Shown: in pieces, positions 3,515 to 48,525 of the stretch
Numbering within the stretch: position 1 is the first letter of the stretch
How the letters are laid out: each line of letters starts with the position of its first letter
From: Eledone cirrhosa
Lineage: Eukaryota
Assembly (NCBI GenBank): GCA_964016885.1
Contig: OZ024742.1
Span: forward strand, 212,846,001 to 212,910,000
Direction: 5' to 3'
Length of the DNA: 64,000 nt
The notes under the pieces: generated by a model
What the model saw: the letters and a program-made list of their open reading frames with translations, nothing else
What the model was told of the DNA's origin: nothing
Database searches by the model: none
Translations under genes and position numbers: made by a program

Positions 3515-5260
3515 TACGTATAACAATACTAATCATACCGTTTCTCTAAACAACAATTTTAGAAAATGTAATTGCAGAAATAAGATATCATGCCCTTTAC
3601 AGAATAATTGCCTAGATACAAATTTAGTATACAAATGCACCATAAAAACTAGAGATAGATTATATAATTATATAGGAGTTACTTCTACAAAATTTAAGGA
3701 CCGTTCGTTAAATCATAAACATTCTTTCAAACGATCGGACAAAAAATTCTCAACCTCGCTATCACAATTAATTTTTGTCTTTAAAAGACAGTAATACTGA
3801 CTATTCGACCTCTTGGCGAAGGATATCGAAAGTGCCTGTTTACCAGAATATGCCTCTCTCAAGAATTTGTCATCTCTGTATTGAAGAAATCTTTCATATA
3901 ATTACCAATCCTGGTAATATTATTAACAAAATATTTAATTCTTGTTTGCATAGGTTCTCCAGAACATTTCACAATATTTACAATTTATAGAAAATACTAC
4001 ACATGCCCTGTATAAGTTGCCTATGTTCAATATATATATATATCTTCGGTTGTTTTTAAAAGTTCTTAAATTTATACATACAAATACTTAATATTATCAA
4101 ATTTATACATGGATATATTTATTGTTATCAAAATCTATACATAGACATTTTTATCTTTTTATTAATATCTAGACCATATTTACTATATGGTGCTCTGTAA
4201 TCATATATGAATTTTTACTTATATTATAATATAAATTATGATTAATTATTAGGTTAAACATTAGATCAAACAATATATCTTCAAATAATTTGAATTCTTT
4301 AAATTACTAAACACTAGAGTTATCTTTTCCTTTAATAAAAGCTTATTTACATTTCACCTATACGAGACATTCAAACTTTACATAAATGTTTAAAATTTAA
4401 ATTTATATATCTAACCTTATACAATAATAGATTATACATAATTATACATAATATTATACATCTTATTATACATCTTCTCTACAAAAAATATAATTATTTT
4501 GACATTCTTAAGCTATATATAGAAAATGCATATATATCTTCGCTCGGCATATCCTACCTGTTTTCATAAGTAAACAAAATCTATATTACACGCATAACTA
4601 TTTATGTATTAAATAAATTTTTAAATAACGTTATACAATAATCTCTTATACTACAATACATTATATTTATAACTGCACTCAACATAATATTGAAATATAC
4701 CCGTAAAATACATCCAATAGTATATATAAATACAGGATATCTTTCACATATTAAATTAATAGTTCTCAATTTAATATATTAATTTATAGTTCTCACCTAA
4801 ATATTATAAATACTTCCACATTATAAAATTAAATAAATAAAAATAAATATAATTATTTCATTCTTTCTATACCCATGTAAATATGTTTGGGTGTATATAT
4901 GCATATTTCTATAAATATTCCTAAATGAACTTGAAATATTTTTTTCAATTTTAATAGCAAACCTCTTTTAAAAAACAATTTAGATAAATATTTAAAATCT
5001 ATCTAGCGTCTAAACTTAACGGTCCTTTCAGTTTTAAGGTTATCCTCATTAGCATATTTATCCTGAGTTTTGAAAATTTATTCACTATCTTCAATGAACG
5101 TATAACATGAAGTTCATATGAAGATATGTCACTATCTTTAAACCAAATATTGTCTTTTATCTGACGAAAGCGTTCTAAAATATTGGTACCCTTGAAATAT
5201 GTATAATAAAATAAATATGGTTTTATAAAGATATTTTCCATTTATTAATATTATTGATAT
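3515..5260 (+). mobile_element. 5'-truncated Naiad-type PLE (GIY-YIG remnant + 3' UTR)
   Basis: From ~3567 it reads CNCRNKISCPLQNNCLDTNLVYKC...YIG; ORF 3775-3990 has CHLCIEE and SCLHRF; there is a 3' HHR. Bases 4092-4178 recur at 63846-63930. Confidence 0.8.
5155..5211 (+). ncRNA. Type I hammerhead ribozyme
   Basis: Stem I ttttat/ataaaa; CTGACGA at 5161; stem II closed by aag/ctt; GAAA at 5194; short stem III; cleavage triplet AUA. Confidence 0.75.
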
Positions 5261-27765: not shown

Positions 27766-27769
<4 letters not shown>

Positions 27770-28092
27770 CTGAAATCGAAAATGCAACTGGAGTCTTATT
27801 TTAAAATATATATATATATTTATTTGGTTCCTTTACCGGTTTCGCAGTTCTTCTGCTTTTCAAAAGTAGAGTTAAGATGGAGGGTCTGTGAGAAAAACCA
27901 CAGACCCTCCATCTCAACTCTACCTTTGAAAAGCAGAAGAACAGCGAAACCGGTAAAGGAACCAAATAAATATACATTTAAAAAAAAATAAGACTCCAGT
28001 TGCATTTTCGATTTCATCTTTTCTTCTTTATGCTTTCACTCGTGTAGGACACCTCGGTTATTTTTCATTTTGTAAAAAAACCTCACTTTCTA
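27766..28092 (+). mobile_element. Fold-back PLE-type mini-element in (TA)n
   Basis: Near-perfect inverted arms ~27770-27890 and 27898-28017, followed by a 3' tail near-identical to 48013-48153. Confidence 0.85.
27831..27866 (-). ncRNA. Minimal hammerhead with U3-A8 core
   Basis: Minus strand: ctt-TTGAAAA-gcag(aagaa)ctgc-GAAA-ccgg-TA-aag. The plus-strand mirror at 27923-27958 carries two mismatches. Confidence 0.7.
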
Positions 28093-47772: not shown

Positions 47773-47805
<33 letters not shown>

Positions 47806-47810
<5 letters not shown>

Positions 47811-47900
47811 AAAAAAAGATGAAATCGAAAATGCAACTGGAGCCTTATTTAAAAAAAATATATATATATTTATTTGGTTCCTTATGCTACGCCTACCGTG

Positions 47901-47935
<35 letters not shown>

Positions 47936-48147
47936 CGGATCAGCGGGGAAAGAAGACCCTGTTGAGTTTGACTCTAGTCCGGTTTTGTGAGGGCACACGG
48001 TAGGCGTAGCATAAGGAACCAAATAAATATATATATTTTTTTTAAAATAAGACTCCAGTTGAATTTTCGATTTCATCTTTTTTTCTTTATACTTTCACTC
48101 GTGTAGGACACCTCGGTTATTTTTCATTTTGTAAAAAAAAACCTCAC

Positions 48148-48153
<6 letters not shown>
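47806..48153 (+). mobile_element. Chimeric fold-back retrocopy: 28S rRNA fragment + PLE-type tail
   Basis: Left arm 47806-47901 is the reverse complement of 47995-48090; tail 48013-48153 matches 27956-28092; flanked by (TA)n. Confidence 0.88.
47901..48015 (+). pseudogene. 28S rRNA fragment (~115 nt, retroposed)
   Basis: tctagcgaaaccacagccaagggaacgggcttgg...cagcggggaaagaagaccctgttgag.ttgactctagt...gtagcataag is the conserved eukaryotic LSU segment just 3' of the R1/R2 target region. Confidence 0.93.
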
Positions 48154-48229
<76 letters not shown>

Positions 48230-48301
48230 TTATATATATATATTAGATAATTCCAAAGGAAAAGCAAAGGAAAAAAGAGTGCTATATGTATAGAACAGAA
48301 C

Positions 48302-48516
48302 TATATAATTAGAAAGTGAACAACACAAAATATAATTACTCCATTACCAAAGGTTTCTGGATCACAGACGATAATAATATACGTCTGGATCGTTCGTCAG
48401 ATAGGGATGTTATCATAACATCTCTATCTGACGAACGATCCAGACGTATATTATTATCGTCCGTGATCCAGAAACCTTTGGTAATGGAGTAGTTATATTT
48501 TGTGTTGTTCACTTTC

Positions 48517-48525
<9 letters not shown>
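48302..48525. mobile_element. Fold-back PLE-type mini-element with HHRs on both strands
   Basis: Palindrome centred at 48414. Plus-strand HHR 48422-48489: ctctat-CTGACGA...GAAA-cc-ttt-gg-TA-atggag; mirror at ~48339-48406. Confidence 0.82.

Follow-up and report, generated by a model that had tools for sequence, protein, structure and literature searches.

Host RNA fragments joined to Penelope-like terminal repeats at predicted hammerhead cuts in Eledone cirrhosa

A stretch of 64,000 nucleotides of the Eledone cirrhosa genome (contig OZ024742.1, positions 212,846,001 to 212,910,000, forward strand; hereafter the window) contains in its assembled sequence a piece of host 28S ribosomal RNA (rRNA; 114 nt, 99% identity) that abuts the tail of a Penelope-like element at +1, where +1 denotes the first base 3′ of the predicted hammerhead ribozyme cut. 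The terminal-repeat family of this focal locus is called family 1. Examination of the genome (3.0 Gb, 1,796 contigs) revealed host RNAs at the same base of other family 1 copies and U6 RNA at the predicted cuts of five hammerhead families. Judging from the genomic copies, the fusions likely record cleavage by weak Penelope ribozymes in germ cells, followed by joining of the cut product to other RNAs and copying to DNA. Such capture is a rare by-product and not the main transposition route. The focal locus is laid out as follows.

47777 to 47807, no strand: (TA)n target, left side, a repeat in the window
47804 to 47901, minus strand: inverted arm, tail +79 to +1 followed by the 3′-terminal 18 nt of the rRNA piece
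47899 to 48012, plus strand: internal 28S rRNA fragment, sense, 114 nt, with a match to ribosomal DNA (rDNA) and to Rfam large subunit rRNA (LSU)
48013 to 48153, plus strand: 3′ product of the predicted hammerhead cut, Penelope-like terminal repeat, +1 to +141
48092 to 48153, plus strand: optional "tail" between two reverse transcriptase (RT) start sites
48154 to 48243, no strand: (TA)n target, right side

A sequence-only reading of the window had described sense 28S rRNA fused to a Penelope-type tail at the predicted hammerhead cut, and this was confirmed by tail and rDNA matches. The tail AAGGAACCAAATAAAT begins at 27956 and 48013 on the plus strand and in both inverted arms on the minus strand, giving four matches against 0.13 expected. 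Positions 47899-48012 agree with the rDNA of this genome at 114 of 115 aligned bases, the shared A counted in, and Rfam assigns the piece to LSU. The sense orientation given earlier holds, but the length of ~112 nt is corrected to 114 nt, starting in a TGT at the 5′ end of the piece that is common to arm and rRNA. The supposed microhomology of aag had to be abandoned: the host rDNA reads ...GTAGCAT/AGGCGGG (the slash marks the joint), the tail reads AAGGAACC, and the overlap is one A (48013). The joint is a U/A step with one shared A and no added base.

The arm at 47804-47901 pairs with 47995-48091 and reaches 18 nt into the rRNA piece, so the earlier statements that it crosses the joint by ~18 nt and that the chimera predates completed integration both stand, the joint being present in the arm as well. 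No more than this order of events follows from the arm; we rejected it as proof of a joined RNA since snap-back of one complementary DNA (cDNA) gives the same picture. The end of the arm suggests +79 as the upstream one of two reverse-transcription start sites, and plain insertions stopping at +79 were also found (L088, L091, L107). In a junction search of the genome the exact joint was found in the arm and the main copy only, and among 40 scored candidates the focal locus alone spans it; a master copy was looked for in the genome and not found. A short interspersed element (SINE) headed by rRNA or small nuclear RNA (snRNA) was rejected, as the chimera is not amplified. A misassembly at the focal locus, or a fusion at the DNA level between an rDNA pseudogene and an adjacent element, is very improbable. 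Palindromes within (TA)n are indeed hard to assemble, but the same joint occurs twice, in an arm and a main copy that differ at several bases, independent capture loci on eight contigs (C1, C3, C4, C6, C10, C11, C12 and C24) follow the same rule, and one donor is spliced (L165, below).

A sister copy in the window has its own ribozyme.

27766 to 27890, minus strand: inverted arm of the sister copy, ribozyme included
27922 to 27959, plus strand: predicted minimal type I hammerhead (TTGAAAA at 27926-27932, stem II, GAAA at 27946-27949, palindromic ACCGGT)
27956 to 28092, plus strand: tail of the sister copy, own ribozyme directly upstream

The region 27766-28092, formerly taken for an intact family member, is a 5′-truncated terminal repeat with an inverted arm and not a whole element. 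From core geometry, the cut is predicted after 27955; relative to most copies, each of stems I and II carries a single substitution in the sister-copy hammerhead. In 26 of the 30 best tail copies, TTGAAAA-gcag-aagaa-ctgc-GAAA-ccgg-TA stands immediately upstream of the tail. The core (C/U)UGAN(G/A)A, GAAA and NUH with stems I and II is that of a minimal type I hammerhead, in family 1 with U3-A8, a core swap that occurs in Schistosoma Penelope elements (PMC4209133). Stems I and II fold computationally, and on co-folding two copies the ACCGGU palindrome region pairs between strands as a palindromic stem III. Rfam returned nothing in the window at gathering score and, on the sister copy, no hammerhead at E ≤ 10. 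A 26-mer spanning the predicted family 1 cut has 13,678 exact genome matches; because these keep the ribozyme in place, nearly all family 1 copies derive from uncut RNA. As a separate observation, a second inverted pair in (TA)n adjoins the focal locus at 48245-48520, with a canonical-looking hammerhead on the plus strand (CTGACGA near 48427, GAAA, predicted cut after ...TTTGGTA, stem I CTCTAT/ATGGAG); the pair ends in CACTTTCTAA, as does the family 1 tail.

Host RNAs at the family 1 cut were sought by four junction searches with starts from +3 to -2 and G or C required at set upstream places (70, 81, 34 and 13 matches, 198 altogether), a design that leaves out upstream stretches with A or T at all four places; transfer RNA (tRNA), 5S and other snRNAs lay outside the donor classes searched. 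Candidate loci were fetched and then compared with rDNA, Rfam and the genome. A two-mismatch design was needed to find captures beyond ribozyme point mutants, which made up most of the first 30 of 249 matches with a non-A before the tail, where no second capture was seen. Firm rRNA or U6 captures number 6 among the 198 matches and are listed with two captures of messenger RNA (mRNA).

28S at +1, family 1: focal locus (114 nt), L164 (27 nt), L166 (20 nt, AAGG overlap)
18S at +1, family 1: L101 (165 nt, 100%, blunt)
U6 at +1, family 1: L171 (full length, arm and main copy), L172
mRNA at the family 1 cut: L165, without a 1.7-kb intron of the parent gene
mRNA at the family 1 cut: L170, 413 nt, one exon of a single-copy gene, blunt

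As the 1.7-kb intron is absent from L165, its donor was RNA; from the look of the translation we take the parent to be a WD40-repeat gene. The captured rRNA ends are all internal, and no mature 3′ end of 18S, 5.8S or 28S was found among the loci compared with rDNA. An 11 nt match to 28S in L104 was counted as a weak capture, while rRNA matches of 11-12 nt in L125, L151 and L333 were taken as chance. No donor could be assigned by comparison with rDNA, Rfam and the genome for L155, L176, L112, L114, L116-L118, L121, L160, L167 and L175, and L115, L119 and L168 match the search anchor only. Two loci (L113, L319) were rejected as host RNA captures and left out of the counts: 100-150 nt between target and tail, at or near the cut, were copied from DNA 1.3-1.4 kb off, where a near-identical repeat copy lies. 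The open reading frame (ORF) of the element itself is also joined near +1 (L088, L099, L111, L120, L125). L099 (G000:C1:283134393) is a partial tandem: a repeat that is still uncut, together with ~220 nt from the beginning of the ORF, runs into a second tail at ~+1, as could happen if cut RNA were joined to another element RNA.

Control windows were placed at -10 to -14 (69 and 44 matches), at -3 to -7 (62) and at an A/T tract upstream of ~+36 (94). No rRNA or U6 was found in these 269 matches, 68 of which were fetched and compared, while the other 201 were assigned to the element or to microsatellites on the basis of 19 printed letters alone; the control loci were checked for rRNA and U6 and not for mRNA. 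The comparison of 6/198 at the cut with 0/269 in the controls gave p = 0.006 (Fisher), and that of the best matched classes, 6/151 with 0/113, p = 0.04; the denominators are matches, so that a locus with both arm and main copy enters twice, and filters varied slightly from window to window. The peak of foreign rRNA, snRNA and mRNA junctions that had been anticipated at the cut base was thus found, with controls empty of rRNA and U6. The idea that ribozyme-cut tails act as adaptors capturing cellular RNA is supported by this recurrence, but the process is rare: about a dozen recognised loci stand against the 13,678 matches with the ribozyme kept, and no amplification of any captured piece was seen.

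The starts of family 1 tails lacking the ribozyme were also tallied by hand in the first 100 of 366 matches with starts from -14 to +3, of which 92 remained after 8 indel variants were dropped. Among the partners, the arm, (TA)n and the element's own sequence predominated. Near the cut, tails start at +3 (9), +2 (2), +1 (12), -1 (5) and -2 (10); further upstream at -3 (9), -4 (6), -5 to -12 (20 in all), -13 (8) and -14 (11), the last two largely reflecting CTG overlap with the arm. The self-joints from +3 to -4 (53/92) form a broad rise around the cut with no spike, although +1 is the commonest single position. Such a rise would be expected if there were no cleavage and the enzyme stalled at the folded ribozyme, whose stem I covers +1 to +4, and switched template by microhomology near +1. 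The 4-base AAGG overlap of L166, the weak cutting of minimal Penelope hammerheads in vitro (PMC4209133) and the altered core of family 2 (below) point the same way. We nevertheless consider stalling improbable: the foot of stem I predicts joints at +2 to +5 depending on the family, whereas U6 is found at exactly +1 in five families that differ in their stems and tails, and with no microhomology.

This evidence comes from a search for U6 3′ ends, in which the last place admitted three of the four letters and which gave 92 matches, 30 in the gene array and 62 dispersed; 53 of the dispersed matches were read in context and 9 from printed letters only. Nine of the 62 lie at predicted +1 positions in five hammerhead families whose tails differ, and the expectation that other hammerhead families would repeat the pattern was borne out by U6 and rRNA joints alike.

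U6 at the predicted cut, family 1: L207, L171, L172, L239
U6 at the predicted cut, family 2: L209
U6 at the predicted cut, family 3 (canonical CTGATGA core): L229, and L203 by likeness to family 3 only
U6 at the predicted cut, families 4 and 5: L234 and L241, one each
U6 ahead of an RTE-like tail: L196, L198, L211, L212, L216, L217 and further loci

U6 is full length in L171 and L229. In family 1 all four U6 joints lie at +1, for which chance gives 3e-4 at the most generous empirical rate (12/92), and none was found away from +1 within the reach of a partial reference. Exactly five T and no added bases were observed in 9/9 joints at cuts vs 25/43 other examined U6 joints (p = 0.02); U6 genes end in T6-7. 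One joint (L226, family 2, ~+2) was dropped as ambiguous. Because joints at +1 occur in five families with unrelated tails, a real RNA end at +1 is the best explanation. Recurrence alone is no proof of cleavage, because U6 and 28S ends also recur at partners without a visible hammerhead. Elsewhere, about eleven U6 3′ ends stand just ahead of one repeat tail, AAGGGCGGTGCCCCAG, presumably RTE-like, with variable linkers of 0-3 nt, and others are fused to the 5′ ends of tRNA-like SINEs. The U6 genes themselves are arranged in tandem, with at least 30 units of ~1.8 kb (G000:C19:31778865-31840348).

Ribosomal RNA was likewise found in family 3, where a tail-side search, without a matched control, gave 54 matches. 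L314 has 234 nt of 18S in both arms, and L313 has 13 nt of 28S, blunt, ending at the same base as L164 of family 1. The capture of one 28S end by two families, in one case with a 1-nt overlap and in the other with no overlap, argues for a discrete RNA end being joined. This end has four matches outside rDNA, two at hammerhead cuts and two at other partners. Four dispersed fragments of independent origin (L164, L313, L382, L385) have their 3′ ends at position 4810 of the rDNA (L161), the one position examined in this way, which suggests that rRNA may break there recurrently. The 18S rRNA gene in L161 (427-3298) is ~2.87 kb long, far above the usual 1.8 kb.

Hammerhead cleavage leaves a 5′-OH on the downstream product. 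With moderate confidence, we attribute the fusions to RtcB-type ligation of cyclic-phosphate RNA ends to this 5′-OH product, followed by reverse transcription into (TA)n. A minority of element RNAs would self-cleave, probably as dimers via the palindromic ACCGGU, and RNAs with a 2′,3′-cyclic phosphate end, such as mature U6 and nuclease-broken rRNA, would be ligated to +1 by host RtcB. The element enzyme would then prime a first cDNA at +141 and, using the other DNA strand, another at +79; joining of these cDNAs through the TGT overlap would give the inverted arm. Ligation is placed first because of the end chemistry of mature U6 and its joining by RtcB, the closure of retrozymes and the repair of rRNA breaks. 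Mature U6 has five U and a cyclic phosphate, and RtcB joins it to 5′-OH RNA before retrotransposition (PMC6789731); retrozyme ends produced by hammerhead cleavage are ligated by RtcB in vitro (PMC7229834), and the same ligase repairs broken rRNA (10.64898/2026.05.26.727988).

A possible but less probable course is that the ribozyme cuts and the RT runs off +1 and jumps to the 3′ end of any available RNA, or to nearby DNA, via one or a few paired bases, with no joined RNA. A jump would explain why 1-4 bases are common to both sides of the joint in five of nine non-U6 captures, among them the focal one, where 2.2 such captures are expected (p = 0.04); three of those five overlaps are also U/A or C/A steps, which break easily. 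The captured piece in L165 stops no more than one base from the end of an exon, suggesting a 3′-OH splicing intermediate, which RtcB would not ligate. The copies of local DNA that L113 and L319 have at or close to +1 and the prevalence of +1 among single self-joints (12/92) also agree with a jump, and an arm could be obtained by snap-back of the first cDNA without a joined RNA; in L006, L009, L032 and L054 the arm extends further 5′ than the main copy. A jump is less easily reconciled with the U6 joints at cuts, all nine blunt with T5 and no additions, whereas U6 ahead of the RTE-like tail has variable linkers, or with the blunt joints of L101, L170 and L313 or the lack of a mature 3′-OH rRNA end at +1 among the loci compared with rDNA. 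The focal joint fits ligation and jump alike, and both routes may operate.

Cleavage followed by ligation has to be weighed against the overlaps, the exon end of L165, the DNA copies in L113 and L319, the broad rise of self-joints and the two limits of the control windows given above, and against four further observations. Family 2 (L009, L013, L014, L059) is high-copy and has GCAA where the core needs GAAA, and despite this core has U6 joined at its predicted cut (L209). U6 is joined three times at one base, …GGTACAAG/CCGAAGC, in a repeat without a visible ribozyme (L197, L201, L222); this repeat has 2,763 pattern matches, and its joints reflect either breakage at a fixed site or the copying of a single chimera. 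The 28S end common to L164 and L313 also joins two non-hammerhead partners. Finally, the single Penelope protein studied in vitro mainly used uncut RNA, and the text consulted reports no reads beginning at the cut (PMC11167929).

The carrier appears, by its domains and insertion traits, to be a Penelope-like element with a C-terminal endonuclease (Neptune-like). Upstream of the terminal repeat, L184 6024-7275 encodes an RT with ...YLDDC... and then a GIY-YIG domain, which in Pfam scored E = 2e-4 and 22.0 bits vs a cut-off of 22.6; a Pfam search of the RT piece matched no family. CDRSNCGTC in L184 is a cysteine knuckle ahead of GIY-YIG, and an extra CX2-5CxxC knuckle in this place marks C-terminal-endonuclease (Neptune-like) Penelope elements (PMC8557442). 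Within (TA)n, copies terminate at either +79 or +141, and an inverted 5′-truncated copy, an optional tail and a microsatellite target are all present, as in Penelope-like elements with a C-terminal endonuclease; arms, tails and targets of these kinds are commonplace among Penelope elements (PMC8557442, PMC3846280, 10.64898/2026.07.22.740005). DNA contigs and restriction-site-associated DNA (RAD) reads contain family 1, with many ends at +80. A non-LTR (long terminal repeat) retrozyme, with non-coding tandem units and a canonical hammerhead, was rejected, as the repeat is dispersed and is the terminal repeat of a coding element.

The designation as an undescribed system was overstated, as a close precedent exists in U6/LINE-1 chimeras (LINE-1, long interspersed element 1; Moldovan et al. 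2019, PMC6789731). There too, sense U6 with oligo(U) is joined to retroelement RNA and retrotransposed together with it, by the cyclic phosphate to 5′-OH chemistry that is only proposed here. The 5′-OH in that case comes from variably broken L1 RNA and the joints are scattered, whereas here each family has its joint at a single fixed base, namely at the cut predicted for its own ribozyme, and the carrier is Penelope-like; focal-type chimeras work like U6/LINE-1 chimeras but are not members. Sense rRNA at the 5′ end of retroelement insertions was also described for 28S/LINE-1 and other RNA/LINE-1 chimeras (10.1101/2025.02.02.635956), for which ligation or template switching was proposed and left undecided; no ribozyme or fixed joint is reported in the text seen, where the words "ribozyme" and "Penelope" occur 0 times.

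Regarding the carrier, Penelope minimal hammerheads with a short stem I, a palindromic stem III for dimers and the U3-A8 core were documented by Cervera and de la Peña (2014, PMC4209133), who state that there is no in vivo cleavage evidence and propose circularisation; the part of the article consulted does not describe host RNA capture at the cut. The Poseidon element PAc of the anole, studied in vitro (Frangieh et al. 2024, PMC11167929), shares two RT start sites bounding an optional tail, priming of both DNA strands, AT-rich targets and uncut RNA as the dominant substrate. It differs in that no reads from the cut appear in that account, whereas genomic copies here start at the cut. In Adineta vaga, Penelope terminal repeats carry host sequence to new sites as well (PMC3846280), but as intron-containing DNA-like segments between repeats, whereas here processed RNA replaces everything upstream of the cut. 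A literature search, with subscription papers and supplements outside its scope, found no host RNA fused at Penelope ribozyme cuts. Taken together, U6/LINE-1 and 28S/LINE-1 chimeras were already known, and capture at Penelope cuts is real and recurrent.

The impact on the genome is small, at most about a dozen loci per family among more than 10,000 copies. In vivo cleavage by animal Penelope minimal hammerheads was stated as open in the text of PMC4209133. Host RNAs at the predicted bond in five families provide genomic evidence for such cleavage and map the bond to the base, including odd cores, namely U3-A8 and one family with GCAA. A portable and cheap test follows: find U6 3′ ends in any genome and read the next bases. 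RtcB-type chimera formation would also be extended beyond LINE-1, with a route for retroposing coding fragments without a poly(A) tail. A broader proposition, to which we give an even chance, is that Penelope hammerheads supply a fixed germline 5′-OH adaptor to which RtcB would join any cyclic-phosphate RNA, be it U6 or broken rRNA or mRNA. Every genome with hammerhead-bearing Penelope elements would then contain a fossil record, exact to the base, of the ribozymes that cut, of their cut sites and of the host RNAs that had been broken, along with poly(A)-independent retrocopies.
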